The notes under the pieces: generated by a model
The model's input: only the letters and a program-made list of their open reading frames with translations
Databases searched by the model: none
Told to the model about the DNA's origin: nothing
Program-made: the position numbers and the translations under genes
IMG/VR virus record: IMGVR_UViG_3300032053_000045
Span: 9,818 to 73,817 of that record
Reading direction: 5' to 3' (one strand)
DNA length: 64,000 nt
Origin: a virus
Shown here: positions 10,032 to 63,588 of the stretch, in pieces
How positions within the stretch are numbered: the stretch's first letter is position 1
Layout: each line of letters begins with the position of its first letter

Positions 10032-10075
10032 GGCTGGGTGCCTTGAACACCCGGCCTTAATACCTTTCAAGGAGG
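10032..10075 (+). promoter_or_regulatory. RBS-masking pseudoknot upstream of HEG (short form)
   Basis: Stem ggctgggtg/cacccggcc; loop ccttgaa is the exact complement of ttcaagg (10066-72), which overlaps GGAGG. Confidence 0.75.
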
Positions 10076-10084
10076 TAAATAAAA

Positions 10085-11461
10085 ATGAAAGAAAAGTTAG
10101 AATCATTACCTTGTGAATGCGGATGCGGTAGTTTGGCTAAACCTGGAAATAGATTCATTTTGGGACATAGTGGAGGAAGAATAAAAGTAAAGAAAGAATT
10201 GGAAATAAGAATTTGTATTTGTGGATGTAATCAGGCTTTTGAATGTAAAATAGATAGTGAACAAGAATATATTACAGGACATAATCGTAAAGGAGAAAAG
10301 TTATCAGAAGAACAGAAAGAAAAACGTAAAGAGAAAATGAAAGAAAAGAGAGAGAAATATCCTAATGGTATTCCTATTATAACTCGAATTTGTGAGTGTG
10401 GATGTGCCGGAACTTTTCAATGTGAAGAAACAAGTGATCAAAGATTTATCGGTAAACATGCACAGAAAAAAGCTAACACCGGAAGAAAACATATAAAAGA
10501 AATTAGAAAGAAAACAAATAAATGTAAATTTTGCGGAGAAGATTGTAAAAATATTTATTGTAGTAAAAGTTGTTATTTTAGTTTCGTAAGACAGAATGGG
10601 AGTTTTAACAAATTACCAAGAAAAATAATTCATTGTCTAAATTGTGGTAAAGAAAAAGAAGTTAGTATAAATGATAAAATAAAATTTTGTAGTACAAAAT
10701 GTATGCATGCCGGAAGGATAATTCCAGTTGAAACCAGAATCTGTGCTTGTGGATGTGGAGAAACTTTTGTTTGTAAAGTAATAAGTGATCAAAGATATAT
10801 TAATCATCACGCAAGTAGAGCGAAAGAAATCAAAGAAAAAATAGGTTCAAAAATTAAAGGAAGACCTTCCCCGCTTAAAGGAAGAAAACAAACTTTAGAA
10901 CACAGAATAAACAGCGGTCTACCGAAAAGAGGCAGAAAGTATAGTTTGGAACATTGTGAAAATATTGGTAAAGCTCTTACAGGACTTAAACGAACAAAAG
11001 AACAATGTGAAAACATTAGTTTGAGTAAAATGGGGAAGAGCCAAACGGAAGAGTCTAATAGAAAAAGAAGATTAGCAATACTCAAAAGAATTAAAGAAAA
11101 TCATGGCAAAGTTTTTCCTGCTTATAACAAACAAGCTTGTGATATTTTGAAACTTTTCGATGAAAAAAATCACACCCACGGTCAATATGCAGTTTACGGT
11201 GGGGGAGAATATGAAGTTCCGGAACTTGGTTATTTTCTTGATTATATAGAACATGAATATAAAATTATTATGGAAATTTATGAAAAACACCATTTCAATA
11301 AAGATGGATCGTTAAGACAAAAAGATGTGATCCGAGAAAGAGAAATTAAAACATTATATCCAGATCATAAATTCCATACTTTCAAAGAAGAAGAAATGAA
11401 TAAGATATTAGAAATCAGTTTAAGAAAATTAAATTATGTAAAGCGTAAAGCTTTGCAGTAA
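10085..11461 (+). CDS. Free-standing homing endonuclease-like protein (Cys repeats, NUMOD3, Vsr/EDxHD-like nuclease)
   Basis: Repeated C.CGC and FCS..C motifs, NUMOD3-like KGRKQTLEHR, C-terminal GGGEY...GYFLDY...E..EKHH...KD..RE. Confidence 0.8.
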   Translation: MKEKLESLPCECGCGSLAKPGNRFILGHSGGRIKVKKELEIRICICGCNQAFECKIDSEQEYITGHNRKGEKLSEEQKEKRKEKMKEKREKYPNGIPIITRICECGCAGTFQCEETSDQRFIGKHAQKKANTGRKHIKEIRKKTNKCKFCGEDCKNIYCSKSCYFSFVRQNGSFNKLPRKIIHCLNCGKEKEVSINDKIKFCSTKCMHAGRIIPVETRICACGCGETFVCKVISDQRYINHHASRAKEIKEKIGSKIKGRPSPLKGRKQTLEHRINSGLPKRGRKYSLEHCENIGKALTGLKRTKEQCENISLSKMGKSQTEESNRKRRLAILKRIKENHGKVFPAYNKQACDILKLFDEKNHTHGQYAVYGGGEYEVPELGYFLDYIEHEYKIIMEIYEKHHFNKDGSLRQKDVIREREIKTLYPDHKFHTFKEEEMNKILEISLRKLNYVKRKALQ

Positions 11462-11484
11462 AAATAAGAAAAGGAGCAAGTAAA

Positions 11485-11745
11485 ATGGAAGAAGAAGTTA
11501 GAAAGGCAAAAATCGGATATGTTGCCCCTCAAAATAGTGAAGAGGCAATTCAGTCTTTGAAATCTATTTCGGCGAGAGTGTTTTCTGCTTTGAAAGGGAA
11601 AGGCCTCACTCTTGTGGAATCTGTTTTTGAAAAAAGTGATAGTAGACTTTCTCCAACAAAAAGTCTATATTCAGGAATGATTGCGGACGTAATAAACAAA
11701 ATGTCAAGAGAGATTGACGACGCAATAATTGCGTTGGAAAAATAA
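11485..11745 (+). CDS. Hypothetical protein
   Basis: AAGGAG RBS. Confidence 0.7.
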   Translation: MEEEVRKAKIGYVAPQNSEEAIQSLKSISARVFSALKGKGLTLVESVFEKSDSRLSPTKSLYSGMIADVINKMSREIDDAIIALEK

Positions 11746-11807
11746 ATCAGATTATTTAATCTGTTGCGAGAGCAACGTTAGTTTCATTTAAAATAGGAGA
11801 AATTAAA

Positions 11808-12032
11808 ATGAGTTTAAACGAATACGTCAATAAAAACAATAAAATATACAAGGTAGAACTTCCTGATAATAAAATCCTAAAAAGTGAAGATGATTTTATT
11901 GAGCTCGATGATGAATATCAAGTGATTGAAAAATCATTTAGAGTAAGTAAATTTCCCAGGAGTTTTAATAAAGCCCGAGACAAAAAATTTCCTATCGAGA
12001 AAATTGTCAGAGAAGAAGAAAAAAGGAAGTAA
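11808..12032 (+). CDS. Hypothetical protein
   Basis: AGGAG RBS; K-S/K-A motifs. Confidence 0.65.
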   Translation: MSLNEYVNKNNKIYKVELPDNKILKSEDDFIELDDEYQVIEKSFRVSKFPRSFNKARDKKFPIEKIVREEEKRK

Positions 12033-12034
12033 TT

Positions 12035-13926: not shown

Positions 13927-13935
13927 GAGCCTATA

Positions 13936-15294: not shown

Positions 15295-15303
15295 GGATAT
15301 ATC

Positions 15304-16214: not shown

Positions 16215-16217
16215 AAT

Positions 16218-17629: not shown

Positions 17630-17663
17630 ATAATTCTACAAAATTAATTATAAGGAGAGAAAA

Positions 17664-18236: not shown

Positions 18237-18249
18237 ATATTAAACAATC

Positions 18250-18323
18250 AAGGGGCTAAGTTTAATTTAGCTAATTAAACGAGGTAGCTTATTCCTACCA
18301 AGCCCTTAAACTCGAATAAGGAG
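18250..18323 (+). promoter_or_regulatory. RBS-masking pseudoknot upstream of HEG (long form)
   Basis: ggggct/agccct stem, side hairpin, ggtag/ctacc stem; loop cttattc pairs with gaataag overlapping AAGGAG. Confidence 0.75.
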
Positions 18324-18330
18324 ATAAAAT

Positions 18331-19209
18331 ATGGAAGAAAAAATAGTAACTTGTCAATTGTGTGGTTTTCAAAGCACTCAGTTACAATTTCATGTTAAAA
18401 AATATCATAATCTTACAGGAAAAGAATATAAAGAAAAATTTCCAAATAGTCAATTAGTTTGTAAAAAAGTTAGAATTTTGACGAGTGAATCAAAAAAAGG
18501 TGATAAAAATCCTCATTACGGTAAACATACTTGGAAATATGGTTTAACTAAAGAGACCGATGAGAGAATAAGAATTGCTGGAGAAAAAACCGGTAAAGCA
18601 TTAAAAGGTAAACCTAATCTTGCTTGGAAAGACAAAAAATTAGAAGACATAGTTGGATCTTTTGAAAAAGCTCAAGAAATTAAAAAAGAACAAAGTAGAT
18701 CAAGAAAAGGAAGATATGCCGGAGATAAAAATCCTGCAAAGAAACCTGGAGTTGGAGCAAAAATTAGTAAAGCGAAAATGGGACATGAGGTTACAAAAGA
18801 AACGAGAATAAAATTAAGATTGAGAAGAATCGAACAGCTTACAGTTAACGGGAAAAAATGGGCTTCTTATAATATAAAAGGTTGTGAATATTTTAAATCC
18901 TGGGATGAACAAAATAATACCAAGGGTCAGTATGCAGTATATGGCGGGGGTGAATATTTGATTCCTGGATTATGGTTTTCTCCCGATTATACAAATCACG
19001 ATATAAAAAAATTCAAAGAATGGGACGAACCTCGTCACTATGATAAATTTGGTAATCTTAAACCAAAAGATGTTCAAAGACAGAAAGAAATCCAAGAAGC
19101 CTATCCGGATCATGAATTTGAAAGAATTAAAGTAGATAGGAATGATAACATTCTTGAGATAAAACTATATCCTGCTTTAAATACTTTATTAAAAGGAGAC
19201 AAGGGATAA
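18331..19209 (+). CDS. Free-standing homing endonuclease-like protein (Zn finger, NUMOD3, Vsr/EDxHD-like nuclease)
   Basis: C..C...H...H finger, GLTKETDER; C-terminal GQYAVYGGGEY...DY...EWDEPRH...KD..RQ homologous to 10085. Confidence 0.8.
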   Translation: MEEKIVTCQLCGFQSTQLQFHVKKYHNLTGKEYKEKFPNSQLVCKKVRILTSESKKGDKNPHYGKHTWKYGLTKETDERIRIAGEKTGKALKGKPNLAWKDKKLEDIVGSFEKAQEIKKEQSRSRKGRYAGDKNPAKKPGVGAKISKAKMGHEVTKETRIKLRLRRIEQLTVNGKKWASYNIKGCEYFKSWDEQNNTKGQYAVYGGGEYLIPGLWFSPDYTNHDIKKFKEWDEPRHYDKFGNLKPKDVQRQKEIQEAYPDHEFERIKVDRNDNILEIKLYPALNTLLKGDKG

Positions 19210-19212
19210 TTC

Positions 19213-23311: not shown

Positions 23312-24829
23312 ATGGTTCTTAATTCTTTTACTAGCAAGGTGTCACAAGGGCTTGAAAAGGCATTTAAAAATCAATATGGCATGAGAGACGTTTCTGACGG
23401 CAATGGAATGATTTTAGAAAAATCAATGAAAGCCTGGGTGCCTGGTTATCGATCTTATGATAAATACGGTCAAGAGAAAACTGGTACTGATTTTCATCTT
23501 ACTCCAGAGACATTGCGAAGAATGTATCAATATAATTGTGTTGTTAGAATGGCGGTTGACGCAATTATTAACGAGGTCACATCAGCAAAATGGGATATCA
23601 TGCCTAAAGAGAAAGATGACAATATTGAAAAGGATAAGGTTAAGCAAGAAGATCAGAAAAAAAGGATCAAAGAAGTAAAAGGTTTCTTTGAGAAGCCTAA
23701 TAAAAATAAAGAAAATTTCAGAACAATTTTAGAAAAAATGATGAGGGATTTATTATTATTGGATGCTGGAGTAATAGTTAAATCTCATACTCCACAAGGA
23801 AGAATAGCAGAAATATATGCAGCAGATGGTGGGACTATAAAAATAGATGCTGACAGACATGGAATGATAAATTGCTTTTGGCAGGTTATTCAACAAGAAG
23901 GACTGAAACCATTAAAATTAGAGTCTAATGAAGTAATTTATCTGATGATGAATCCAAGCACAAATAGTTTATATGGATTATCTCCATTGGAAACTCTACA
24001 TAACATTGTTACAGCTTTTCTTTACGGGGAAACATATAACCTGAAGTATTTCGAGAATAGTTCTACTCCAAGAGGAATTCTTGATCTCGGTCCTGCAATT
24101 ACTGAGGATCAGTTAGACAGATTTAGAACTTACTGGCAGTCGGAAACTATTCAACAACCTCATCGAACATTTGTTGTAGGTGGAGCGTCTGCAGGCTCAA
24201 AGTGGACCGCAATTGCAATGACCCCCAAAGATATGGAGTTTAACAACTATATGAATTGGTTATTGAAAGTTATTCTTGCAGTTTTTGGAGTTAGCCCTTC
24301 AGAAGCAGGATGGACAGAAGATTTGAGAGGGGCTCCCGCAACAGGACAATTACTTCAATCTCAGGCTTTTAAGAATAAATCTATTTATCCTATGATGGAC
24401 AAAATTTCATATTATTTAACAAGAGATATTATTTGGGATGAATTTGGTTATGACGATTTAAAATTCGAATTCATCGAGGAAATCAGTCTCCAAGAAAAAA
24501 TGTTAAAAGGACAATACGACAACATGAGAGTAATGTCAGGGATTATGTCAGTTGACGAAATTAGAAAGGAATCAGGTCTTAGTCCAAAGCCAAAGGAAGA
24601 AGAAGGAATGGGAGGTATGTTTGGTGGAGGAGAAGAAGAGGAAGAGGACTTTGAAGCTTCACCAGAGAAACCAAATGATCCAAATCAAACACTTGATTTA
24701 GTTAAAAAAGAATTAAATAAAAATTCAACAAACACTCAAAAAATGATTGCGAAAGCTTTTAATAAACTTCGTTTTGAGGTACTACGAGGTCTGGTGCATA
24801 GCCAGTTTTTGAATGAGAACAAACAGTAG
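23312..24829 (+). CDS. Portal protein (HK97 family)
   Basis: YGLSPLE, N..YF.N...P.GIL, KDMEF, I..VFGV.P, G.MSVDEIR...GL.P. Confidence 0.93.
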   Translation: MVLNSFTSKVSQGLEKAFKNQYGMRDVSDGNGMILEKSMKAWVPGYRSYDKYGQEKTGTDFHLTPETLRRMYQYNCVVRMAVDAIINEVTSAKWDIMPKEKDDNIEKDKVKQEDQKKRIKEVKGFFEKPNKNKENFRTILEKMMRDLLLLDAGVIVKSHTPQGRIAEIYAADGGTIKIDADRHGMINCFWQVIQQEGLKPLKLESNEVIYLMMNPSTNSLYGLSPLETLHNIVTAFLYGETYNLKYFENSSTPRGILDLGPAITEDQLDRFRTYWQSETIQQPHRTFVVGGASAGSKWTAIAMTPKDMEFNNYMNWLLKVILAVFGVSPSEAGWTEDLRGAPATGQLLQSQAFKNKSIYPMMDKISYYLTRDIIWDEFGYDDLKFEFIEEISLQEKMLKGQYDNMRVMSGIMSVDEIRKESGLSPKPKEEEGMGGMFGGGEEEEEDFEASPEKPNDPNQTLDLVKKELNKNSTNTQKMIAKAFNKLRFEVLRGLVHSQFLNENKQ

Positions 24830-26043: not shown

Positions 26044-26453
26044 TGCAAAGAACTGAAGAGTTAAATTTATTTTTAAGATCGATTTCAAAATCAGATGTTA
26101 GGACGAGACAAAGAAGAGTTAATCGATTTGAAAAAGGGACATTAAAAATGATTGTATTAAGCATTGATGGCGGAATCTTGGCCGTGACTGGCAGACTAAG
26201 GAATGAGCCGGATAGAAAAATTCAAACATTGATATTTAATAAATCGATTAATCCTTATGGAATAAAATCTTGGTCTTTAAGAAAAGCAAAAGATTGGGTG
26301 CATTTGTACAAAAAATCCATAATAAAATCTATTAACCCAGAAAAAATTTCAAATAGAATAATTATTATGAAAGCAATTAAGGCAGCTGAACATCAAATGA
26401 TAAACAAATTACCGAAAATTATAAATAAGGTATTACAAGGAGATGAGCAATGA
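26040..26453 (+). CDS. Hypothetical basic protein (head module)
   Basis: Coupled to both neighbours. Confidence 0.7.
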   Translation: MMQRTEELNLFLRSISKSDVRTRQRRVNRFEKGTLKMIVLSIDGGILAVTGRLRNEPDRKIQTLIFNKSINPYGIKSWSLRKAKDWVHLYKKSIIKSINPEKISNRIIIMKAIKAAEHQMINKLPKIINKVLQGDEQ

Positions 26454-28222
26454 GTAAATTATTGGGAGGGAATTTTTCTCTTGATATTTCCAAGGCCGTG
26501 GAAGGTAAAATCAATCCGGCAAAGAAAAAACGGATAATCGAGGGATACATGACAACTCCCGCTCTCGATCTAGAAAATGAAGTAACAGACAGCAAGGCGT
26601 ATCCTGAAGCTGCCGAAGAATTGAACCAACATGTTCATGATGGATCTCCAATTCCTATTTTTATTGAGCATCGTAGGAAAGAAATTTCTTTACCTGTTGG
26701 GAGAATTATTTCTGCTGAAGCAAAGCCTAATGGGATATGGTTTAAGGGAGAGATCGCAGAAGGTAAAATAGCAGATCCTGTTTGGGAGCTGATTGAGCAA
26801 GGGATGTTAAACGGATGCTCAATGGGTGGAGATGCCTTAGAAACAGTTCCTGATTTTGATCCTGAGAAAAACAAAGAATTCAAAAGAATAAAAAAGATGA
26901 CTATTAGAGAATTATCATTGACAGGGCTACCTGTTAATCCTCAAGCAGTTTTCTCTATGGCAAAATCTTTAAATATCGAAGAAAGGAAGGTGAGATCAAA
27001 ATTGGAAAAATTAGAAAAAGCAATAGAAACAGAATATGATATTAGTACTATAGAGAAAGCTGTTAATGATGGAAAAATTGATGAAGAGAGTATGAAGAGA
27101 ATAAAATCAGCTCTCGATGGATTAGAACAACTTATTGGAATAAAAACTGATGAAACTCCAACGAAAGAAGAGGCTCCCAAAGAAACAGAAGTAGCAGAAA
27201 AACCCACTGAAGATAAAGGTAAGTTAGATCAAATTTTAGAGAAAATAAATATGCTTGTTGAAAATAAGGAAAAACCTGCAGAAAAACCCGAAGAAACTAT
27301 AGAAGAACCAAAAACTACAGAAGCCCCCAAAGAAGAAAAAGAAGAAGGAGGTGAAATGAATATGGCAAAAATGAAAGATATTGATGAAAAAGAAGAAGAT
27401 AAAAAAGAAGCAGAAACACTGAAATGTAAATCTTGTTCGATGGTCTTCGAAAAAAGTGAAGATGAAGATTACGAGGTTAAATTCTGTCCTAAATGTGGTA
27501 AACCATTCGGCGACGAAGAAGTTGAAGGCGAAGTTGATGCTGAAGATAGTGAAGATGGAGAGGAAATCGTTGACGAGGAATCAGTTGACGAAGAGCCGAT
27601 GGATGAAGAGGAAGACATTGACGATGAAGAATTAGATCTCGATGAAGAAGGCGAAGATGACGAGGATGAATTCGAAGATGACGAGGAAGATGATGTTGAA
27701 ATGGTAAAGTTTGTTGATGATGAGGATGAAGATGACGAGTTTGAGGAAGATGAGGAAGATGAGGATGATGAGTCCTTTGAAAAGAATTTAGAAATTCTTC
27801 AGTCAAAACCGTCAAAAGATTCCGGTCAGTCAATTTCAACATTCAAGGGAGATTATATCAAGCCATCAACTGGTAAACGGACTAATCCTGCTGACACCAC
27901 AGAGCACGAACATCCGAAGCCATTCAAGCCGTTAGAGACTGGAGTTTCAGGTGAACAGTTTGCTAACTATGGTAAGGATCGTACAGAGAAATCTATGAGT
28001 TCGTCCAGAATTAAGAGGATGGTTGAGAAAGCTGTTAAGGATTCCGTAGAAGAGACAATTAAATCTTCTATTGAAAAAGCAATTGACGCTTCTAATGTTG
28101 AAAGAAAAGTTCTTGGTCCGATTGAGAAATCTCAAAATGCGACTCCTGATACTATCAGTGATGACAGAGTTTTCGCTCGTGCCCTTTCCCAAGGTCTGTC
28201 TGATCCGATCCCGATGGAGTAG
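26450..28222 (+). CDS. Prohead maturation protease (HK97-type) fused to acidic scaffold-like region
   Basis: IEGYM...D...E, FIEH....PVG, G.W.KG.I, G.S.GG, ELSL...P.NP.A; then coiled coil, Zn ribbon and D/E tract. Confidence 0.9.
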   Translation: MSKLLGGNFSLDISKAVEGKINPAKKKRIIEGYMTTPALDLENEVTDSKAYPEAAEELNQHVHDGSPIPIFIEHRRKEISLPVGRIISAEAKPNGIWFKGEIAEGKIADPVWELIEQGMLNGCSMGGDALETVPDFDPEKNKEFKRIKKMTIRELSLTGLPVNPQAVFSMAKSLNIEERKVRSKLEKLEKAIETEYDISTIEKAVNDGKIDEESMKRIKSALDGLEQLIGIKTDETPTKEEAPKETEVAEKPTEDKGKLDQILEKINMLVENKEKPAEKPEETIEEPKTTEAPKEEKEEGGEMNMAKMKDIDEKEEDKKEAETLKCKSCSMVFEKSEDEDYEVKFCPKCGKPFGDEEVEGEVDAEDSEDGEEIVDEESVDEEPMDEEEDIDDEELDLDEEGEDDEDEFEDDEEDDVEMVKFVDDEDEDDEFEEDEEDEDDESFEKNLEILQSKPSKDSGQSISTFKGDYIKPSTGKRTNPADTTEHEHPKPFKPLETGVSGEQFANYGKDRTEKSMSSSRIKRMVEKAVKDSVEETIKSSIEKAIDASNVERKVLGPIEKSQNATPDTISDDRVFARALSQGLSDPIPME

Positions 28223-28534: not shown

Positions 28535-31500
28535 ATGCGTACATCATTCAATTTTGGGTGATGTTAAACTCTACTATATCGGAGGAAGGTTTAAAAGAAA
28601 CTAATAAATCAATTCCGAGGAAAGACTGGAATACTCCAGAATCCGTAGAGACTATACGTAGAGCTTCCTGAAAAAGGAAGAAGATATAGTCCAAACTGAA
28701 GATATAAATAAAACTTCAGAGGAATTCAGAAATGAAATTCCCGCCTTGAAAAAAGGTTAATAAGTAATAGAATGTGAAAAAGCTTAAATCTGTGTTTTGG
28801 AGCTTTTAAAATTTGGCTATATGCTGGGACCTCCAATACTGGACAATCAGCAGGAAAGACTCTTAAAAAAGAGAATCCTCAGAGACTATACGCCAAACAT
28901 CTCGTACGCATTCCAGGAAAAAGATGATGATATAGTCCGTTCTATATGGTGACATATAGAGGCAAGTAGAAATATTTGCCCGCCTTGTAAAAGGTAATAA
29001 AAGTAACACGAAGTGAATACAGTTGCCGGAACGGGTGGAGATACCTTGATCCCGCGTTTGGCGGATTTTTAATTTGGTCCGCTTTAAATTGAGCTAAATC
29101 GGTGAACATCTTTTTCTAAAGACAATACCGAGGAAAGACTGGAATACTCCAGAATCCGTAACGACTATACGCTCAACATTGGAATAAAATCCATAAAGAT
29201 ATAGTCTAAACTCCAACTATAGATAAAATTGGAGAGGAATTCAGAAATGAAATTCCCGCCTAAAAAACTTTAGGTTATTAAAGTAATAGAATGCAAATCA
29301 TTCCGTTTTTAAAATAAGCGGAATTCAAATTGGGCTAATTCGGTAAAAACCTGAAAGAGAAAATTTTTCAGGCAATACCGAGCTAAATTCAAGAACAATC
29401 TTGATAAAAGTGTAGAGACTATAAACCCGATGCTAATTCCTTTAATTAGTAATGATATAGTCCAAACTGCAAATATAAAAATTAAATTGCAGAGATAAGA
29501 AGAAATTCTTATCCGCCTCTTAAACAAGAGGTTATAAAAGTAATAAAATGTTATCCGGCAGAAATCGTGTTTAAATATGCGACTTTGAGTAGAGATGCTC
29601 ATCGAAAATCTCGTAAATTGCTGGAAAATCTTAACAGTCTACTAAACTACAAAGTAATTTCTTTAAAATGAAATAAACTTGAATGTTTAAAAATTAGTAG
29701 AATTAGACAATCAGCAGGGAAGCTCGAAAGAGAACCTTCAGAGACTAGAGACGAGACATCTGAAAAGATGATGATATAGTCCGAACTTCAAAGAGATTTG
29801 AAGAGTTCTGTTTTAAAAAAACAGAGAGTAACACAATTGATATGCGCCAATTCCTCCCAACATTCGTATTAACTTGCGACTTTGAGTAGAAATACTCATT
29901 GAAAAATTCCGTAAATTGCTGGAAACCCCGAGTATATTTTGGTACAGAAAAATTAAATATTCTGTAAAAATCCAAAATTGCGGACAATCAGCAGCCAAGC
30001 TTCCTCTAAGGAAGAAGGTTCAGAGACTAAAGACGGAACTTCTGAAAAGAAGATGATATAGTCCGATCTTTATAGCGATATAAAGAGTTGATAGAGAGAA
30101 AATATTTTTCTATCAGAATAACAGAAATGAATGCCGACCCAAGTTTATAGATTTCCTAAGTTAAGTGCTGGTTGATTTTATTGCAGCCACTTCAAGAAGA
30201 AATTCTTGTCGAATAAGCAACTATATCGGGGGAACTCTTCAAGAGAATAAATCTGAAGACAATCCCGACGGAAGAGAATACCAGAAATGGTGGAAAAAAC
30301 TCCCGCTAGAGACTACACGTTGCAACCTTGAATAAAGGTTATGATATAGTCCAAACTGCATAGTGATATGCAGAGGAATTCAGAAATGAAATTCCCGCCT
30401 AAAAAACTTTAGGTTATTAAGTAATAGATTGAGCAATGTTTATTATGTTGGTGAGGCGATTGCGGCTCCAGAATCGGCAATGAGTACCGGAACCGTGGAA
30501 TTGACTGCGAAGAAATTAATGGTTGATTTTAATGCAGCCACTTTTGAGAGAAATCTCAATTGAAAAATCTTACTATATCGGTGAAACTCTCGAAAACTAT
30601 GATATAATATAACTATGGGGCTAAGAAGAGCTTTATAACCTCTTCGAAGGTGCCTAAATCACCAAGCCCCTTCTTTACCTATTTAGGAGGTAATAAATGA
30701 ATAAATTTAGAAAATGTTTGTATTGTGATAATTTAGTTAAAGTAAATAAACCTCATATTGCCAGAATTCTTTGTCAAGAATGTAAAGATAAGAAAAACAT
30801 TCCTATTTTTAAAGATATTCAGGGGATAGAAAATGTTAATTATGTGATTTGCAAAATTTGCGGATATAAAAGTACGCAATTATTTTGGCATATTAAAAAA
30901 CATCACAAATTAACAGGTAAACAATATAGATCTTTATTCCCTGGAGAAAAATTAATGATTTCTTGGAATTTAGGATTAACATCTGAAACAGACATTAGAG
31001 TTAAGAAAAATGCTGAAAATTCTGGTAAGGTTAGAAAAGGAAAGAAAAATCAAAAATCCAGTGAAACTAAGAAGAAAAAATTTAAATTGGGTTTATTAAA
31101 AATTTGGAATAAAGGCTTAACAATAGAAGATCAAAGAGTTAAAAATTATACAAAAAATCGTGAAAAGACAATAAAAGAAAAATTTGCTTCTGGTGAATTA
31201 GTTGTTTGGAATAAAGGACAGACAAAATATTCACACCCAAGTATAGCTAAGTCAATAATAACAAGACGAGAAACGATGGCAAAAATTTAGCTTTAGATCC
31301 TCATTATTATGATCTTGACTTTGGTGAACCAAGTAATTTAGATTTAGCTCTATATGCCGAGTTAGAAAAACATAACATAAAATATATTCCACAATATTAT
31401 TTCGTTTGTTCTGAATTAGAAACAATAATAGATGCGTTTATAGAACCAAATATTTGTGTTTATGTAGATGGTACATATTGGCATAGTCCTGGTCATATGA

Positions 31501-34500
31501 GAAGTAAAGATAGTTATCAAAAACTTATTCTAAGAAATAAAGGATTCATTCCTTTAAGATTTTCTGAAGAATATTTTTATTCAAACAAACATTTAGTTAT
31601 AGAAGAAATTAAAAAAGTTATTCGAGACAATACCGAGGCAACCTGAGAAATCAGAGAGTCCGTAGAGACTACACGTAAGAATCCTATCTAATCACATAGG
31701 AAAAAGATATAGTCCGAACTCTATAGTGATATAGAGAGATAAATAGAAATATTTACCCGCCTCGAAAGAGGTTATAAAGTAACAAATTTGTGCCCTCGCC
31801 ATCAGTGCCGAGTTACAAGAGGATAAATTGTTGTCCTCTAAAAATTGTATTAAAACGGTGAAACGCTTCGAGAATATATGTTATAATTAATAGGGGCTAA
31901 GATTGACCTCATGAATCAATCGACGGTTGCCCTAACAACCAAGCCCTTCTTTACCTTAGGGGGTATGAAATGAAGAATGATAAGATTCAATGTCCAATTT
32001 GTAAAAATTGGTATCATAATTTGACAGGAAAACATTTGCAAAAACATGGTTATAATTCAGTAAAACAGTTTTTATTAGATTATCCTAATTCTAAAACAAT
32101 ATCTAATAGAGTATCAAAAATTCTTTCAAAACATTGGCATAAGAAATTAAAACCAATGCGTAAAGAAATAGGTAGAAAATCTAGTGAGACTAAAAAAGAA
32201 AGATTTAAACTAGGTTTATTGGAACCTTGGAATAAAGGATTAACTAAAGAGACTGATAAAAGAATTAAGAAAAATGGTGAAAGTGTTTCTAATACATGGA
32301 AAAGAAAATCAAAAAGGGAAAAGAAAAAATATGGAAAAGTCGTCAGCAAAAGATTAAAAGGTAGAAGTTGGAAAGATCTTTGGGGTGAAGAACAAGCAGA
32401 AATAAGAAGTGAAAAACAAAGTAAGAGGTTGAAAGGAAAAGGTAGTCCTTTTTATAAAGATGGAAGATGTTCAGATAAATTAAATTATATTAATGATTAC
32501 GGACCAAATTGGCCAAAGATAAGAAAGGCTATTTATAAAAGAGATAATTGGACTTGTCAAGAATGTTTGGCAAAAGATAGAAAAGTACTTTGTCATCACA
32601 TAATAGATTATTTTGATTTTCCGGTAGAAAAAAGAAAAGAATTTGCTCACCATGGATTGAATTTAATTACATTATGTTTTTCTTGTCATTCAAAATTAAT
32701 TAACAAAAAGATTCTTAAAGTCAATACCGTGAGGTATTTAGAGATTACAAAATCTAAGTATCTTGTAACGACTACGTATTCAAAGGCAACTTTGAGTGCT
32801 ACGTACAACATGCTAAAAAGCATGATGATATAGTCTAAACTGTAGACATAATTCATAAACTGCAGAGATAAGAAGAAATTCTTATTCGCTTATTTCAGAA
32901 TTAGGTTTTCTAAATAAGTTATTAAAGTAATAAATTGGCAATTTTGCCGATTGTGCCAGTTGTCAGAGATGACATGGCCAAAGCGTTCGCGCTGGCAGAA
33001 GAAGATGTGTTCGAATTGATGAGCACCTTTTGAGAGAAATCTCAATCGAAAATTCTACTATATCGGTGGAACTCTTTGTAATCTATTTGAAATCTATGAT
33101 ATAATATAACTATGGGGCTAAGTTTGAATTAATTACTCAAACGAGGTTGCCTGAACAACCAAGCCCCGTTACTTTTCAGGAGGTAAATATATGGTTTTTC
33201 CAAAAGGAAAAAAGTTTCCAAAATCTGGTATTGAAAAATTAAAAAAGACTTTCAAAAAACGTAAAGAATTAAAATTACACATAGGAACGAAGAAGATCAA
33301 TGAAAAAAAGATTAATTATTGTTTAAATTGTGACAAAGAAATAATCGTTTCTGTAAATGGGTGTAATAAGGATAAGAAATTTTGTTCTTCAAGCTGCGCT
33401 TCTTCTTACAATAATAAAATTAGATGGAGCGATAATGAAAAGAAACAAAATTGGATAAGAAAAATCAATGAGACAAGAAAAAATAATAATAGTTATCATA
33501 CTGGAAGTTTAAAAGCAATTCAAACCAGAAGACAAAATAATAATTTATATAGTTGGAACACAGGTTTAACAAAAGAAACTGATGAACGTTTGAAAAAAGC
33601 TAGTGAAAAACAAAGTAAAGATAGGAAAGGAGTTTCTTGGGTAGATCGCTTTGGAGATGAAACAGCAAAAGATATGAAAAGACAAGCTAGACAGAGATTG
33701 ACAGGTATGATTATCGACGGAAAATTAGAATTAAATTATGGTTTAGAATGGATAAAAATCCGAAAAGAAATTTTAATTAGAGATAATTACACTTGTTGTG
33801 TTTGTAATGTTGAAAAAGCTGAAAAAGTTCATCACATTGTTCCATATAGAATTATTAAAAAACATGAGAAATTTTTATTAGTATCAGTTTGTAAAAAATG
33901 TCATTTAAAAATAGAACCAAAGAATATACCGACGGAAGAGATTACCTTTGAATCGTATATAAATTATTATATAAATAAAGGTGGAAAACTCCCGCTAGAG
34001 ACTACACGTAGAACCCCTATAACGGGTGATGATATAGTCCGAACCTCAGATATAAAATAAAACTGAGGAGTTATCTAGAAATAAGATAACCTCTTAAGAA
34101 ATTAAGAAGTAACAAAATTGTTATCAATGGTAACACGGCTGGTGCTTTTGCGGCTAACGACCCTAAGTTTGCATGGATATGAAAAATATTTAGTGCCTTA
34201 CAAGAGAAATCTTGTATAGAAAATTCAGAGAATTGCTGGAAGATCCTAAGAGCTTGTTTAACTACAAAGTAGATTCTGTAAAATGAATCAAGCTTGATAG
34301 TTTGAAAATAAACAAGATTGGATAATCAGCAGGGGAGCCCGAAAGGGAACCTTCAGAGACTATGTACTGAACTTCCTGAAAAAGGAAGATGATATAGTCC
34401 GTACTTTAGGGAAACTTAAAGAGTTCTGTTTAATAAAACAGAGAATAACACAATAGTCAATGGTATTCGGATTTCAGGAACTGGTACAGATGTCAATGCT

Positions 34501-36314
34501 AGCTCGGCTGCACTTACGCTCGCGAACATCTCGACTTCAATTCAAAATTTGGGCGTCTACGGACGCGACAAATCAGAATTGCTGCTCGTCGTTTCGTTGA
34601 GAGAAGAAAGCAGACTGCGTCAGCTACTTGGTATCAATCTGGCGGTCAACGCACTTGGCCTTACCGGTACGGCACTTCCGGGAGAGATCGGTAAAGTCTG
34701 GGGGGTTCCTGTAGTTGCTACAAACCTCTTACCTACGACTCTTGCCCCGGGAACCTTGTCTGTGGCCCTGATGATCAACAGAAATTGTGCAGTTATTGGT
34801 GGAAAAATTCGCCAATGTAAAAACTCGTAAATTCGGTGGAACTCCTGCAAAGGACAATACCGAGCCAAGCTTAATAGAGAAACTCTCGAAATAGAATTTT
34901 TTTATTATGAAGGTGTAACGACTATACACGAGTCTTCTTTAGAAAAAAGAATGAAGATATAGTCTGAGCTGAATAGTAATATTCAGATGTAGACAGAAAT
35001 GATCTACATTTGGAAGATAAATTCTTCCAAGATAACAGTCTGGATAGAAGGATCTTCACAATCAAGTCCTCAAATACATCTGGGGTCTTATAAAAAACTT
35101 CGAGAATTGCTGGAAGCCTTTAGAGCTTGTTTAACTACAAAGTAACTTCTCAAATGAAGTAAACTTGAATGTTCTAAAAATAAACAAGATTAGGTAATCA
35201 GCAGCCGAGCCCGTGAGGGAAGGTTCAGAGACTATGCACGAAGCATTTGTTAAAAATAGATGATGATATAGTCCGATCCTTGTTGAAAAACAAGCAAATT
35301 TTATTATGGGTCTAAGTTGAGAATAATTAACTCCATGTATAAAATTTTGGAATTAAAAATATGCAGATGAGATTTTGATTAGGTCCGATCAGTTAAAACA
35401 TAATAGCTGCTTCATAAAGAAATTTATGAATGGGACTTGGCTAATTCGGTGAAACTCCAGAAGTGGAAAACACCGAGCTAAATTGAGAAGAGAGTTTCTC
35501 TCTCATAAATGTGTAACGACTATATACCAGGCATCCTAAAAGGATGAAGAGATAGTCTGATCTACAAATATAACCAAATGAAATTGTAGAGTTGGTAATT
35601 CTTATACTTCGTCAATATAAGACAATCCAACACTCAGAAATGAGTTAACAAAATGTACTTGTCGTCGCGTCCGAAAGGATTATGAAAAATTAGTCCGTTT
35701 AGATAGAAATATCTAAATAAAATAATCTCGAAAATTGCTGGAAGGTCATGAGAGTCAAACAAGCTACAAAATGAATCCTTAAATGGATTGAGTTCGAATG
35801 CTTTAAAAATTGTTTGAATTTGATAATCAGCAGCCGAGCCCGAAAGGGAAGGTTCAACGACTACGCCCGAGACATCTCTAAATGAGATGATGATATAGTC
35901 TGATCTTATGGGAAACCTTAAGAGTTGACAGGAAATGTTTCTTGTCAGAATAACACAAATGTGGTTTCGCTATGCAATACGCCGACGCCTCGGTTCGGAT
36001 TATTAATATAAATAGTTCCATTTAAGAGTAATCTTAAATTGCAAACTCAGAGAATTGCTGGAAGGTCCTTAGAGCTTGTTTAACTACAACATAATCTATG
36101 TTATAATAGATAAGTGTGAATGTTTGAAAATAAACAAGATTGGATAATCAGCAGCCGAGCCCGAAAGGGAAGGTTCAGAGACTATGTACTGAGTTTCCTC
36201 GAGAGAGGAAAATGATATAGTCCGATCTCATAGGAAACTATGAGAGTTGTAGAGAGAATATTTAAAAATATTTCATCTGCAGAATAACACAAATGTATTA
36301 ATATCGCACCTTAG
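28535..36314 (+). CDS. Major capsid protein (HK97 fold, 305 aa), split by 16 group I introns
   Basis: join(28535-28548,28775-28785,29014-29066,29294-29306,29551-29568,29840-29867,30130-30172,30432-30523,31791-31824,32938-33010,34121-34174,34457-34800,35043-35070,35364-35393,35656-35680,35962-36000,36296-36314) = 918 nt with no internal stop. AAGGAGG RBS; lies directly after the prohead protease; HK97 motifs GG..IP, VGE, V.L..KKL, IS.EL.ED, ING, GVPVV, ER.GF. Confidence 0.93.
28549..28774 (+). ncRNA. Group I intron 1 (226 nt)
   Basis: P1 acatcatt/gggtgatgt with U.G; P3 ctctac/gtagag; P7 gagact/gatatagtcc; ends aatG. Confidence 0.9.
28786..29013 (+). ncRNA. Group I intron 2 (228 nt)
   Basis: P1 aaaagctt/gagctttt; P3 tttggc/gccaaa; P4 tgctgg/tcagca; P7 gagact/tagtcc. 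Confidence 0.9.
29067..29293 (+). ncRNA. Group I intron 3 (227 nt)
   Basis: P1 gcggat/gtccgc; P3 ttgagc/gctcaa; P7 acgact/tagtct. Confidence 0.9.
29307..29550 (+). ncRNA. Group I intron 4 (244 nt)
   Basis: P1 attccgt/gcggaat; P3 ttggg/cccga; P7 gagact/tagtcc. Confidence 0.9.
29569..29839 (+). ncRNA. Group I intron 5 (271 nt)
   Basis: P1 tcgt/gcga; P3 tctcgt/acgaga; P/Q aattgctgg/aatcagcag; P7 gagact/tagtcc. Confidence 0.9.
29868..30129 (+). ncRNA. Group I intron 6 (262 nt)
   Basis: P1 tcgt/gcga; P3 ttccgt/acggaa; P7 gagact/tagtcc. Confidence 0.9.
30173..30431 (+). ncRNA. Group I intron 7 (259 nt)
   Basis: P1 tggt/gcca; P3 gcaac/gttgc; P7 gagact/tagtcc. Confidence 0.9.
30600..30690 (+). 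promoter_or_regulatory. Intron-internal extended -10 promoter plus RBS-masking pseudoknot
   Basis: TGATATAAT 30600-08; ggggct/agcccc; ggtg-cctaaat-cacc loop pairs with atttagg in atttaggagg. Confidence 0.75.
30697..31646 (+). pseudogene. Intron-encoded endonuclease (Zn finger, NUMOD3, Vsr/DUF559-like), split by a -1 frameshift near 31285
   Basis: ORF 30697-31290 has WN.GLT repeats; the -1 frame 31287-31646 reads ...DAFIEPNICVYVDGTYWH...KD.YQ..IL..KG...LRFSE. Confidence 0.75.
31879..31964 (+). promoter_or_regulatory. Intron-internal extended -10 promoter plus RBS-masking pseudoknot
   Basis: TGTTATAAT 31879-87; ggggct/agccct; ggttg-ccctaa-caacc loop pairs with ttaggg in ttagggggt. Confidence 0.75.
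31970..32833 (+). CDS. Intron-encoded HNH homing endonuclease
   Basis: C..C..H..H finger, WNKGLTKETD, RDNWTCQEC...HHI...NLITLC..CH. Confidence 0.88.
   Translation: MKNDKIQCPICKNWYHNLTGKHLQKHGYNSVKQFLLDYPNSKTISNRVSKILSKHWHKKLKPMRKEIGRKSSETKKERFKLGLLEPWNKGLTKETDKRIKKNGESVSNTWKRKSKREKKKYGKVVSKRLKGRSWKDLWGEEQAEIRSEKQSKRLKGKGSPFYKDGRCSDKLNYINDYGPNWPKIRKAIYKRDNWTCQECLAKDRKVLCHHIIDYFDFPVEKRKEFAHHGLNLITLCFSCHSKLINKKILKVNTVRYLEITKSKYLVTTTYSKATLSATYNMLKSMMI
33097..33183 (+). promoter_or_regulatory. Intron-internal extended -10 promoter plus RBS-masking pseudoknot
   Basis: TGATATAAT 33097-105; ggggct/agcccc; ggttg-cctgaa-caacc loop pairs with ttcagg in ttcaggagg. Confidence 0.75.
33191..34060 (+). CDS. 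Intron-encoded HNH homing endonuclease
   Basis: C..C...FCS..C, WNTGLTKETD, RDNYTC..C....VHHI.P...LVSVC..CH. Confidence 0.88.
   Translation: MVFPKGKKFPKSGIEKLKKTFKKRKELKLHIGTKKINEKKINYCLNCDKEIIVSVNGCNKDKKFCSSSCASSYNNKIRWSDNEKKQNWIRKINETRKNNNSYHTGSLKAIQTRRQNNNLYSWNTGLTKETDERLKKASEKQSKDRKGVSWVDRFGDETAKDMKRQARQRLTGMIIDGKLELNYGLEWIKIRKEILIRDNYTCCVCNVEKAEKVHHIVPYRIIKKHEKFLLVSVCKKCHLKIEPKNIPTEEITFESYINYYINKGGKLPLETTRRTPITGDDIVRTSDIK
34175..34456 (+). ncRNA. Group I intron 11 (282 nt)
   Basis: P1 gcat/gtgc; P3 ttcag/ctgaa; P/Q aattgctgg/aatcagcag; P7 gagact/tagtcc. Confidence 0.9.
34801..35042 (+). ncRNA. Group I intron 12 (242 nt)
   Basis: P1 attggt/gccaat; P3 actcgt/acgagt; P7 acgact/tagtct. Confidence 0.9.
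35071..35363 (+). ncRNA. Group I intron 13 (293 nt)
   Basis: P1 aagtcct/gggtctt; P3 cttcg/cgaag; P7 gagact/tagtcc; divergent 3' (P9) region. Confidence 0.85.
35394..35655 (+). ncRNA. Group I intron 14 (262 nt)
   Basis: P1 cagt/gctg; P3 cttgg/ccagg; P7 acgact/tagtct. Confidence 0.88.
35681..35961 (+). ncRNA. Group I intron 15 (281 nt)
   Basis: P1 ggat/gtcc; P3 tctcg/cgaga; P7 acgact/tagtct. Confidence 0.9.
36001..36295 (+). ncRNA. Group I intron 16 (295 nt)
   Basis: P1 ggat/gttcc; P3 actcag/ctgagt; P7 gagact/tagtcc. Confidence 0.9.
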
Positions 36315-55085: not shown

Positions 55086-55115
55086 CTGTTATTTTTAAAA
55101 AAGGAGCTATAAGGA

Positions 55116-57287: not shown

Positions 57288-57307
57288 AAAAGGAAAGAAA
57301 AAAATTC

Positions 57308-60592: not shown

Positions 60593-60640
60593 TTAAAAGA
60601 AATGAAAAAAATAATTACTAATAATTGGAGAAAATATTAA

Positions 60641-63505
60641 ATGGAAAAACAGGTCTTTTATCCGAGAGAAAAACTGCTGGCAACAGATCTAAATAATACA
60701 ATAACAGACACTGAAACTTTCGGAAAAACAATAATAACAGATTTGTTAATACAAAAATCTGGATTAAATTATCCAATTATTTTAAGTGGATTAACTGGTT
60801 CTCCGGCAATTGTTCCTGATGACACTGTGACAGTTTCAGCCGGACTTGCCTATAGTTCTGCTGGTGAAAGAATAGAAGTTCCTTCTCCTGTAACTCTTGT
60901 ATGGGATGGGACAAATGCCCCTGGATTTCCAACAAATCATGCATTTAGAAGAATAGATGTTGTTTTAATAAGAAGAGCTTCTGTAAACGTTAATTCAACA
61001 AGATATTTTATTGATGCTAATCCCGCTTCATCAACATTTGGACAACAGATAGTTTCATCTGTAACAATTGGACAAACTGATGGATATGAATTTTTTGTTC
61101 AAACAGGAACTGAGGCTGCTGATCCCCCAATTCCAACACCAATTGCAGGATGGATTCCATTATTCCTTGTCTATGTTCATTCATTCAATGATGCAGGAGG
61201 TCCTCTTACATTTGTCGACACTGGGGCCACACACCCTGGATCGAGTTTTTGGAGAGGCTGTCCTTCACCCCCCGGACCAGATTATGGTTCCGATATAGAT
61301 AATTATTATTATCAAAATTATAACAAAATAACATTATCTGCATTAGAAGACAAACTATTCGATATTCCCATTGATGAGAACATTGGAGCTGGAACTACCA
61401 GAGCAACAGATACAATTTCTCCTAATTGGACAAATGGGGTTGTGACTTTAGCTACTACTGTGGATGTTACCTCTCCGATAACAAGAACTGAATTTGTTGG
61501 TTCAGGACTCAATGATATGGATAATTTTGGAAGTGACTATGATCCAAGTATTAGTGGATATGGCCCATGGCAATATCATATAGAAATTGATACTATTGGG
61601 GCGACAGATAAATTTAAATGGAGAGAACTTGACTCAGGAGCTTGGACTCTTGCAGTTCCGATAACAGCTGGAGCTCCACAGGTTTTAAGTAATGGAATTC
61701 AAGTCACATTTGCGGCCGGAACAGGACATAAACTTGGAGATTATTGGGAATTTGATGTTTCAACAATATCAAGACAACCTGTTTATGGAGCTAATAATAC
61801 TGCGGAGCCTGAACCGGAAAATTTTATATTTGGAAAAATAACAAGTATTATTCCCGGGGCCGTTACAGTAACATTTTATAGAGGCAATCCAGAAGGAACT
61901 CTTGGTGTAGATTATTGGGCTTCAAATTGTAACACGGATGTTTATTTAACTTATCCATTGAGAGTTCCATTAAGAAATTTACCTACAGATGTTTTTAGAA
62001 ATAATTTCCAGACTGGTGTTTCTATTGATATGAATTTAGAAAAAAGAATTGAAGAAATAGAAACTGGAATAACTTTAGATCCTTTGTATCTTCGTAGAGA
62101 TGTTTCTGCTCCTGCCGGTAATACTCTTAATCGTCAAATTTCAATCAGATCAGATTTATTTTCAGTTCCAGGAGTAGCACCATTTATTGTTACTCCGACA
62201 GCTCCTGGAGTTCCAACTGGAATTTGTGCAGAATTAAATGCAGACAGATTAGACAGTTTACATATTGGGCAAGGAGTTTCACCAACCACCAATTATATTC
62301 CTTATGCAGATGGGGCAGGAAACGTAGGTATCGGAACTGCTCCTTCTTATGCCATTGATATTTCGTCTAACCGGGCAATTAGAATTCAAGGGGCAAGCGG
62401 TTATTTATACACAAACAATATTAATCCAGCAACAGGTGGCAATCTTCGTATAAATGCAAATGTTGGAGTAAATACAGTTCCGAGTTATACTTTCGATGTT
62501 AGTGGATCTGGTAGATTTACTAGCAGTTTATATGCTAATTCTACTTTGACTGTCACTAGTACTACTACCTGCAATGGAACTTTAATTGCAAATAGTTATT
62601 TAAATAGCTATGCTTATGCATATTTTGATTCTCATGTTGGAATTGGATTTCCAATTTACACTGGTTCTTGCAGATGTGATATAAAAAATACTAGCGGATA
62701 TAATGGAGCTTTAAGTGTGGAAGATACTGTGTCTGGGCACACTGCTATGTGGGTTAATGCGAGTGCGACGGGACCTGGCTCTAGTATAGGAATTTATGCT
62801 GAGTCTCATCAAGATGCCGGATATGGAGTTCACGGGCAAGGACCGGTGGGTATTTATGGAACAGGAACTGTAGGTGTTTCGGGGGCCGGAGTATTTACTG
62901 GACTTAGCACAACCGGGGTGCAGGGGACTGGAGACGTTGGCATTTATGGATATGGAAGTTTATATGGGGGTTACTTTTTTGGTAATACTGGAATTTATGC
63001 GAATTCTTTAGCTCCAACAACTCAATATAGTGGATATTTTGCTGCTGGAATTTTTGTAGAAAAAGATTCGACATCGGGCGGAGCAGGCCCGGTGACCCTT
63101 GGAATCAGAGAACATTGGATACCTTCTGGAGTTGGAACTGTTGCGGTATGGATAGATAGAGGCGGAGCTGTCGGAGAACTAGCCTTACAAGCTTCATCGA
63201 TAAAATTTAAAAAAGACATCAATGATTTATCAATCGATTTAGAAAAAATTTATCAATTAAGACCCGTATCTTTTAAATGGAAAGATTCTATCATTGATAA
63301 CCAGAAAGGAGAATATGATTTTGGTTTATTGGCTGAAGATACATATAAAATAATCCCAAGATTAGTTTCTCTGTCAAACGAAGGTGAACCAATATCGGTT
63401 AGTTATGAAAAATTGGGAGTTTTACTTCTAATGGTAGTAAAAGATCAGAAAAATAAAATGGATCAACTAGAGAAAAGAATTTCTCTATTGGAAAAAGGTA
63501 AATAA
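60641..63505 (+). CDS. Tail fiber/spike with C-terminal intramolecular chaperone (peptidase S74-like)
   Basis: LNADRLD, GNVGIGT, G(I/V)YG repeats, SS.KFKKDI..L......LRPV.F.WK...GLLAED. Confidence 0.85.
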   Translation: MEKQVFYPREKLLATDLNNTITDTETFGKTIITDLLIQKSGLNYPIILSGLTGSPAIVPDDTVTVSAGLAYSSAGERIEVPSPVTLVWDGTNAPGFPTNHAFRRIDVVLIRRASVNVNSTRYFIDANPASSTFGQQIVSSVTIGQTDGYEFFVQTGTEAADPPIPTPIAGWIPLFLVYVHSFNDAGGPLTFVDTGATHPGSSFWRGCPSPPGPDYGSDIDNYYYQNYNKITLSALEDKLFDIPIDENIGAGTTRATDTISPNWTNGVVTLATTVDVTSPITRTEFVGSGLNDMDNFGSDYDPSISGYGPWQYHIEIDTIGATDKFKWRELDSGAWTLAVPITAGAPQVLSNGIQVTFAAGTGHKLGDYWEFDVSTISRQPVYGANNTAEPEPENFIFGKITSIIPGAVTVTFYRGNPEGTLGVDYWASNCNTDVYLTYPLRVPLRNLPTDVFRNNFQTGVSIDMNLEKRIEEIETGITLDPLYLRRDVSAPAGNTLNRQISIRSDLFSVPGVAPFIVTPTAPGVPTGICAELNADRLDSLHIGQGVSPTTNYIPYADGAGNVGIGTAPSYAIDISSNRAIRIQGASGYLYTNNINPATGGNLRINANVGVNTVPSYTFDVSGSGRFTSSLYANSTLTVTSTTTCNGTLIANSYLNSYAYAYFDSHVGIGFPIYTGSCRCDIKNTSGYNGALSVEDTVSGHTAMWVNASATGPGSSIGIYAESHQDAGYGVHGQGPVGIYGTGTVGVSGAGVFTGLSTTGVQGTGDVGIYGYGSLYGGYFFGNTGIYANSLAPTTQYSGYFAAGIFVEKDSTSGGAGPVTLGIREHWIPSGVGTVAVWIDRGGAVGELALQASSIKFKKDINDLSIDLEKIYQLRPVSFKWKDSIIDNQKGEYDFGLLAEDTYKIIPRLVSLSNEGEPISVSYEKLGVLLLMVVKDQKNKMDQLEKRISLLEKGK

Positions 63506-63542
63506 TATATGGATAAGACAGTTTTTAATTGATAAGATTTAT

Positions 63543-63588
63543 GGGGTTAGTGCTCTAACCATTAGCCCCTTACTTCGTTAGAGGGGGT
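63543..63588 (+). promoter_or_regulatory. RBS-masking pseudoknot upstream of HEG-like gene (short form)
   Basis: Stem ggggttagtg/cattagcccc; loop ctctaac pairs with gttagag (63577-83) overlapping GAGGGGG. Confidence 0.75.

Follow-up and report, generated by a model that had tools for sequence, protein, structure and literature searches.

A covarying RNA leader covers the ribosome-binding sites of mobile nuclease genes in related uncultured phages

The 64,000-nucleotide stretch of DNA considered here, referred to below as the window, comprises bases 9818-73817 of a 73.8-kb phage contig in IMG/VR (record IMGVR_UViG_3300032053_000045). Directly before each of six homing-endonuclease-like genes it carries a structured leader whose helices cover the Shine-Dalgarno (SD) sequence of the gene that follows. 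The leader is a real, uncatalogued, covarying RNA lying over the ribosome-binding sites of mobile nuclease genes, and a total of 25 copies occur in 7 related contigs from uncultured phages. Its helices, their covariation, its position on the SD and its association with nuclease genes are directly observed. Its most probable role, to which we give a probability of about 0.7, is that of a cis-acting damper that holds down translation of homing-endonuclease-like genes by covering a strong SD.

Architecture and covariation of the leader

Two architectural types can be distinguished: 21 copies are built around a three-way junction, and four are plain hairpins, two of them in the window. Read 5' to 3', the junction type consists of a stem of 6 base pairs (bp), P1, usually GGGGCU with AGCCCC; the dinucleotide AA; a side hairpin, P1a, with a G-C closing pair plus 5 bp and a loop of 9 nucleotides (nt); GA with zero or one further nucleotide; a second hairpin, P2, of 4-5 bp with its loop L2; zero or one nucleotide; and the 3' strand of P1. 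L2 is 6-7 nt long and always starts with C-Y-Y. The plain type is reduced to a single hairpin of 9-11 bp that carries the same kind of loop. On the 3' side of the stem both types continue with a spacer whose length is constant (6-10 nt) across the two architectures, the target of L2, the remaining SD bases, 1-7 nt and the ATG, the first 2-3 SD bases forming the 3' end of the L2 target. The original prediction had described six sites with a G-rich stem and a loop that is the exact complement of bases overlapping the SD, and all six stand, with only the start of the second moving from 18250 to 18252. A side-hairpin junction shared by four of these copies had been noted as well; the corresponding pattern, GGGGCTAAG...CGA...CCAAGCCC, gives four matches in the window (18252, 30617, 31893 and 33114) and none in 100 shuffles.

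The pairing between L2 and its target is the most striking feature of the family. Across the 22 copies that were parsed explicitly, 143/143 pairs are Watson-Crick, with no G.U pair and no mismatch, and three further copies show perfect pairing by reading. About 20 different L2 sequences occur over all copies, and compensatory changes in the parsed set are found at five of the six positions and at the seventh in addition. The first 20 copies contain 16 distinct loops; when loops are paired to foreign tails only 3-4 nt match, and none of 20,000 loop-versus-tail permutations reaches the observed complementarity. For the stems of the parsed set, the proportion of canonical pairs is 108/108 in P1, 107/108 in P1a and 72/72 in P2, with compensatory double changes at 3/6, 5/6 and 3/4 positions, respectively.

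Because MAFFT alignments misplaced P2 and the loops, explicit parsing was combined with a model-made alignment (R2) of the 21 junction copies, which was used for pair counting. Paired cells amount to 95.8% in this alignment, versus 78.6% in shuffles (0/500) and 36-59% when the partners are slid against each other. Changes on both sides are seen in 21/26 pairs, and the covariation score is 0.489 versus 0.176 in shuffles, with 0/500 for every measure. For the distal half of the loop helix the figure obtained here, 74.6%, is too low, owing to the way insertions fall in the 7-nt loops. The earlier suggestion of a covarying structure is borne out, and chance is excluded for the family, by these counts, the perfect L2-target pairing, the permutations and the further copies that a covariance model detected in related contigs.

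Another helix covers the remainder of the SD. The segment with which L2 pairs forms, in its turn, the loop of a small hairpin, P3; the last bases of the spacer provide its 5' strand and the remaining SD bases its 3' strand. Examples, with the loop in brackets, include TTACCT[ATTTAGG]AGGTAA, TACCT[TTCAAGG]AGGTA, TAATCT[TTAAAGG]AGATTA, TAATAC[TTGGAG]GTATTA and ACTTC[GTTAGAG]GGGGT; a further P3 pair is CTC/GAG. P3 first surfaced as minus-strand mirror matches of a generic descriptor, to which it was then added. Its strands score 5.4 when paired with their own partners versus 3.5 with non-self partners, a value that 0/20000 permutations reach, and 97.5% of its pairs are formed in the model-made alignment. 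In all 22 parsed copies the GGAGG core straddles the two covarying helices, L2-target and P3. The pseudoknot originally proposed is thus upheld in so far as a distant segment matches the loop at every base and covaries with it, although the partner proves to be the loop of P3 and not a free tail. The fold is accordingly a two-helix lock, that is, a kissing-type complex or two alternating helices, rather than a simple H-type pseudoknot.

Several observations place this fold in the messenger. Eleven pairs are G.U on the mRNA strand, where the opposite strand would have A.C, and the structure is therefore an RNA fold of the sense transcript. Minimum free energy (MFE) folding with RNAfold independently predicts P1, P1a, P2 and P3 in all six window copies, with z from -1.5 to -4.1. 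A DNA-level operator or repeat was considered and rejected, as the stems vary in sequence yet keep their pairing and the eleven G.U pairs are on the mRNA strand only. A terminator was also rejected, there being no U-tract and no plus-strand terminator call at the sites.

Window copies, their genes and the wider family

All six window copies and the genes behind them are on the plus strand. Copy 1 (10032..10084), of the plain type and read from the sequence (MFE z = -4.1), begins 2 nt past the stop codon of the preceding gene; its hairpin A pairs 10032-10040 with 10048-10056, its L2 (10041-10047, CCTTGAA) is matched by the target TTCAAGG at 10066-10072, and P3 joins 10061-10065 with 10073-10077. 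The 458-aa nuclease-like protein encoded behind it (10085..11461) has an N-terminal Zn-ribbon and NUMOD3-like repeats, and its C-terminus places it in one family with the product of the gene behind copy 2. That copy (18252..18330), of the junction type, begins 15 nt past the preceding stop codon and pairs L2 at 18288-18294 (CTTATTC) with the target at 18314-18320 (GAATAAG). Its 292-aa product (18331..19209) combines a MucR-like zinc finger with a C-terminal PD-(D/E)XK-fold (RAP/Vsr-like) domain.

The family shared by these two proteins has no Pfam name, and its C-terminal domain is PD-(D/E)XK-like by structure search (VIA Z of 10.6 for a RAP domain, 7.9 for a restriction-endonuclease-like protein, 6.8 for Vsr and 5.9 for I-Bth0305I). 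No PDB relative of the 18331 open reading frame (ORF) or its family was found by sequence. Membership in the Vsr/DUF559 group was considered for this family and discarded, the two being unrelated in profile comparison and the nuclease fold being seen only by structure search.

Copies 3, 4 and 5, all of the junction type, follow one another in the intron-rich head-gene region. In copy 3 (30617..30696), L2 at 30653-30659 (CCTAAAT) pairs with 30681-30687 (ATTTAGG) and P3 pairs TTACCT with AGGTAA; the 197-aa product of the gene that follows (30697..31290) has a MucR-like zinc finger and is related to Vsr/DUF559-like nucleases of related phages. In copy 4 (31893..31969), whose side-hairpin loop has TCATGA, L2 at 31930-31935 (CCCTAA) pairs with 31956-31961 (TTAGGG), before a gene for a 287-aa HNH endonuclease (31970..32833; PF01844). 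Copy 5 (33114..33190; MFE z = -3.2) pairs L2 at 33150-33155 (CCTGAA) with 33175-33180 (TTCAGG) and, in P3, TTACTT with AGGTAA; it precedes the gene for a 289-aa HNH endonuclease (33191..34060).

Copy 6 (63543..63593) is again plain and reads as a junction copy minus its P1a side hairpin. Hairpin A pairs 63543-63552 with 63560-63569, L2 at 63553-63559 (CTCTAAC) pairs with 63577-63583 (GTTAGAG), and P3 joins 63570-63576 with 63584-63590. The HNH-type nuclease gene that follows (63594..63998; phrog_1271, 5.9e-13) encodes Zn ribbons and continues past the window end. This copy is detected by the covariance model at E = 0.0016, and copy 1 is undetected by either covariance model (R1 or R2); the two plain-hairpin copies of the window (10032 and 63543) are supported more by architecture than by sequence homology. 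A descriptor that demands a stem of at least 8 bp gives two matches in the contig versus a mean of 0.18 in 60 simulations. The generic descriptor, a hairpin loop with a downstream complement, is unspecific (57 matches versus about 40 expected) and becomes specific only once P3, a start codon and an ORF are added as requirements.

The wider family was gathered with a covariance model built from 7 copies (R1) and a structural descriptor, run on the whole records of contigs found by exact-pattern scans of IMG/VR. In addition to the six copies of this contig, a complete 178-kb phage has 7, contigs of 28 kb and 11 kb have 3 each, and contigs of 113 kb, 17 kb and 152 kb have 2 each. All 25 are directly 5' of nuclease-type ORFs, which represent at least four families; those outside this contig precede HNH, Vsr/DUF559, endonuclease VII and NUMOD3-bearing ORFs. 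The expectation that the motif is common to intronic and free-standing genes, and to HNH and Vsr-like nucleases, is thus confirmed and widened to a further PD-(D/E)XK-fold family and to endonuclease VII. At one locus of the 178-kb relative (L215:19294-19372), an intact leader with good P1, P1a, P2 and P3 and the loop CTTGTA matched by TACAAG precedes an ORF of 21 codons that starts with a NUMOD-like motif; here the fold has persisted after loss of its nuclease gene.

Many related nuclease genes manage without the leader. No HNH, GIY-YIG or LAGLIDADG matches beyond the six leader-bearing genes were found within the window, where the claim that the motif precedes every endonuclease-like gene holds; upstream of the window, at 636-1694 of the contig (L211:636-1694), a seventh paralogue is leaderless. 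The 178-kb relative has about 18 leaderless paralogues. Many leaderless genes start at or overlap an upstream stop codon (for example, ...TAATATG), an alternative means of coupling their translation to that of the neighbouring gene.

Outside the related contigs, searches returned little. A family-profile search yielded 45 nuclease homologues, of which only those from already known contigs have the leader, and a single-protein search for related loci found none. The first exact-pattern scan of viral contigs returned 71 stretches, only 3 of them true and the remainder chance. A pattern scan of 185,579 species genomes gave chance matches and a repeat in Burkholderiales metagenome-assembled genomes (MAGs), none matching the model, and a second scan was empty. 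The repeat matches the pattern in dozens of contigs from a few Burkholderiales MAGs, more than 10 times in one Casimicrobium bin, mostly at a constant length of 58 nt; with no match to the leader model, it looks like an unrelated dispersed repeat. In a metagenome scan with a loose pattern of 14 fixed bases, none of 80 loci among the matches listed fits the model. In four of the seven leader-bearing contigs, which were compared with each other, the structural genes are syntenic and the proteins 25-66% identical, and at least those four therefore belong to one phage clade. The notion of a mobile module that travels with nucleases is accordingly retained only within a single clade of related phages, in which many paralogues do without it.

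No Rfam 15 family is found at the leader sites, threshold matches in the window being group I introns only, so that the proposed novelty survives the comparison that might have ended it; permissive scans at the sites gave only chance-level matches to unrelated eukaryotic families. A full-text literature search found no paper describing such a leader. The nearest likeness is int-alpA (RF02996), an orphan Rfam motif that is typed as gene/sRNA and has been assigned no function. Both have a three-way junction with the order P1, CUA(A), G-C-closed hairpin, GA, CCU-loop hairpin and P1', and they differ in the lengths of the junction strands. The RF02996 model has no match in the window at its gathering threshold (35.8 bits), none at E <= 10 in 30400-33300 or in the 96 bases of 33105-33200; across five phage records it likewise leaves all 25 copies without a score at E <= 10. 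A sub-threshold match of 26.9 bits (cut-off 35.8) occurs in the 152-kb relative (L369:793-839), where a paralogous nuclease gene starts about 40 nt further on. The partner of the site's second loop, AUUCUGA, is CAGAA, some 12 nt 5' of the SD, rather than the SD itself, and the leader covariance models leave the site undetected. It is possible that int-alpA is a distant relative or a convergent structure, rather than the family of these copies.

A translational damper and the alternatives

The SDs of the window copies are near consensus (AGGAGGT, AAGGAG, GGGGGT) and are located 6-9 nt from the ATG; what is masked is therefore a strong site, rather than a weak site left alone. In the proposed mechanism, a rigid stem would present the anti-SD loop L2, which would pair with the 6-7 nt ending in the first 2-3 SD bases, and the spacer before the target would pair with the remaining SD bases in P3, so that the GGAGG core would be occluded whichever helix forms. 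30S subunits would then rarely bind and little nuclease would be made. Such damping would protect the phage genome and, for intronic copies, would keep ribosomes off the folding intron, as has been demonstrated for T4 I-TevI. Relief could come from thermal breathing. Moreover, a long ORF has its stop codon 0-15 nt upstream of five free-standing copies, those at 10032 and 18252 included; a ribosome terminating there would unwind the 5' strand of the stem, which suggests that translation of the nuclease is coupled to that of its neighbour.

A similar logic is known from T-even phages, in which SD-sequestering hairpins regulate I-TevI, I-TevII, I-TevIII, segB and the Aeh1 gene mobE, the td intron's splicing is impaired when the I-TevI hairpin is lost, and a late promoter inside the hairpin opens it by giving late transcripts that lack the 5' strand (PMC2988022). 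In both cases a cis RNA lies over the consensus SD of intron-encoded and free-standing homing-endonuclease genes within late, polycistronic or intronic transcripts, and both presumably serve to keep nuclease synthesis low or late and to let the intron fold undisturbed. As in that class of mechanism, the SD is inside a conserved base-paired structure. The T-even elements, however, are single unrelated hairpins, whereas here one conserved fold recurs across several nuclease families and covers the SD with two covarying helices, one of them contributed by a distant preformed loop. The leader would be a more elaborate form of this kind of masking.

The position of the promoters differs as well. 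Sigma-70-like promoter matches with an extended -10 (TGnTATAAT), a consensus match only, are found on the plus strand at 30581..30608, 31858..31887 and 33076..33105, ending 8, 5 and 8 nt, respectively, before the leaders at 30617, 31893 and 33114. All three are outside the fold, upstream of P1, and none is inside the structure, as judged by a consensus scan from which the phage's late promoter may differ. With the promoter-like sites upstream of the whole fold, promoter choice cannot open the leader in the T-even manner.

A number of points weigh against the damper as described. We infer repression from the geometry of the fold, and its purpose and relief are deduced as well. The leader is optional for these nucleases, many paralogues being without it. 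Masking may be partial, as each helix alone is weak (mean -2.2 kcal/mol for P3 and -5.5 kcal/mol for the L2-target duplex). On A-form geometry, a linker of 0-4 nt should not allow a complete loop-loop helix to form in cis while both P3 and the stem stay intact; the folded state would then be an H-type pseudoknot in alternation with P3, or else a kissing complex under strain. Finally, a near-invariant junction (CUAA-G...C-GA) and a palindromic P1a loop are unneeded for simple masking, which suggests a further function; the two features hint at an added layer of control.

In a kissing complex the two stems would stack on the ends of the loop-loop helix, with their bases at least 20 bp apart; in the plain copies these are joined by 0-4 nt, so that coexistence in cis is improbable and a true cis kissing complex unlikely. 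P1 stacked on P2 makes a stem of 10-11 bp, and a spacer of 6-10 nt is roughly as long as is required to span its minor groove, which fits an H-type pseudoknot with the spacer stretched and P3 open. On the same A-form reasoning, the L2-target helix and P3 probably alternate in cis, each covering part of the SD. Alternatively, two molecules could form both SD helices with each other in trans.

This last possibility leads to the alternative in which the RNA is a dimer, with leaders pairing tip to tip through their P1a loops and each L2 kissing the P3 loop of the other molecule. In 17/18 junction copies the 9-nt loop consists of 2 nt, a self-complementary hexamer and 1 nt, and five covarying palindromes are represented (TAATTA, TCATGA, TAGCTA, TGATCA and TTATAA); the lone exception, TGGCTA, still pairs with itself by way of a G.U. 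Palindromy is largely confined to this one offset, at which 16/17 loops have it versus 0-3/17 at others, with a chance expectation of about 0.03 per loop. No second copy of the hexamer was found within -400 to +1200 nt, and a second intramolecular partner for the palindrome in cis was rejected on this ground. Reciprocal kissing in trans would also remove the steric conflict of the cis model.

The dimerisation initiation site of HIV-1 has a 9-nt loop made up of 2 nt, a varying self-complementary hexamer and 1 nt, the same 2+6+1 layout as P1a. In the leader the flanks of the hexamer lack conserved purines, many of the hexamers contain only A and U, and the setting is an mRNA leader rather than a packaged genome. 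Eight of the 18 hexamers are entirely A/U (UAAUUA) and would kiss very weakly, the plain-hairpin copies have no P1a loop, and we know of no established precedent for dimerisation among bacterial or phage mRNA leaders. Dimerisation consequently seems rather unlikely. Nevertheless, it is compatible with the damper and would refine how the lock closes. A related idea, which we rate just as doubtful, is that of a self-counting RNA in which the palindromic-loop dimer locks the SD of its partner in trans, so that translation would fall as the mRNA accumulates. If this were true, cross-talk among the several leaders of a phage would be prevented by their differing palindromes and loop pairs.

An unlikely alternative of another kind is a regulated switch, in which the junction would bind a ligand or a phage or host protein and thereby shift the SD-covering helices against an open state. 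CUAA, the G-C closing pair and GA are almost invariant in 21 copies whose stems and loops vary, strong SDs that are only weakly masked are usual in gated designs more than in constitutive ones, and two covarying, probably mutually exclusive helices would suit such a device. Yet four functional-looking copies, two of them in the window, reach the same loop-SD pairing without the junction, no Rfam riboswitch matches, and the sensing of a small molecule would have no metabolic logic on nuclease genes. The downstream proteins share no common domain through which they might regulate themselves, and autoregulation by the nuclease is for this reason unlikely.

The leader might instead serve as a cap that stabilises the mRNA, with the transcript beginning at the first G of P1, the stem blocking RNases that depend on the 5' end, and coverage of the SD being secondary. 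Gram-positive mRNAs are stabilised by 5'-terminal stem-loops, and the extended -10 matches that end 5-8 nt before P1 at 30617, 31893 and 33114 would be suitably placed. A copy in another phage likewise follows the same TATGATATAAT box, and several more have -10-like boxes ahead of them. In the window, the extended -10 boxes before the intronic leaders, TATGATATAAT or TATGTTATAAT, align with a conserved GATGATATAGTC core segment of ORF-less introns; the promoter may have been made from the intron core strand, or the reverse, and part of the box may be an intron legacy. A promoter-like box is lacking from many copies, which are embedded in longer transcripts, either behind an ORF or far inside an intron, and the base-for-base tracking of the SD by L2 and P3 would be left unexplained, which makes a stabiliser very improbable.

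Least probable is a translational activator, in which pairing of the loop beside the SD would open or position the ribosome site, as in the IncI-alpha/IncB plasmids, where the repZ/repA pseudoknot activates translation, requires translation of a leader peptide, and has a similar layout in which the loop of an upstream hairpin pairs beside an SD also sequestered by a local hairpin, here P3; in the present case L2 pairs with 2-3 core bases of the SD itself and not with the SD-sequestering strand, so that the pairing cannot free the site and should repress.

Genomic setting and significance

The contig has a G+C content of 34% and a completeness of about 59%. Its structural module includes, in window coordinates, a portal gene (23312-24829), a head protease/major head-like gene (26450-28222), an intron-crowded region (28.7-36.3 kb) and a tail fibre gene (60641-63505). 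The intron cluster comes just 3' of the head protease/major head-like gene. Ten Rfam matches to group I introns, of 58-83 bits, are found within 28776-30373 and 34154-36244; three leader-bearing nuclease ORFs are placed between them, and the flanks of these ORFs are intron-like. Together these imply at least 13 introns in about 7.5 kb (28776-36244). Searches against named phages in INPHARED gave nothing meaningful for the 9-kb intron region (megablast), one leader (blastn) or a 1006-aa protein (tblastn).

Homing endonucleases must be expressed enough to spread, yet not so much as to harm their carrier or its splicing, and to our knowledge the worked-out solutions to this problem are otherwise only the one-off hairpins of T4-type phages. 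In the phages described here, one portable RNA fold has been reused before at least four unrelated nuclease families, both in introns and between genes, and its base-pairing scheme can be read directly from sequence, the covariation being clean. The leader thus represents a well-defined, uncatalogued family of cis-regulatory RNA that is suitable for Rfam, and provides some 20 natural, mutually orthogonal loop/SD pairs as candidates for tunable translation dampers. The palindromic loop and the int-alpA-like junction, in turn, offer a lead on the role of that orphan motif and on dimerisation of phage mRNA.

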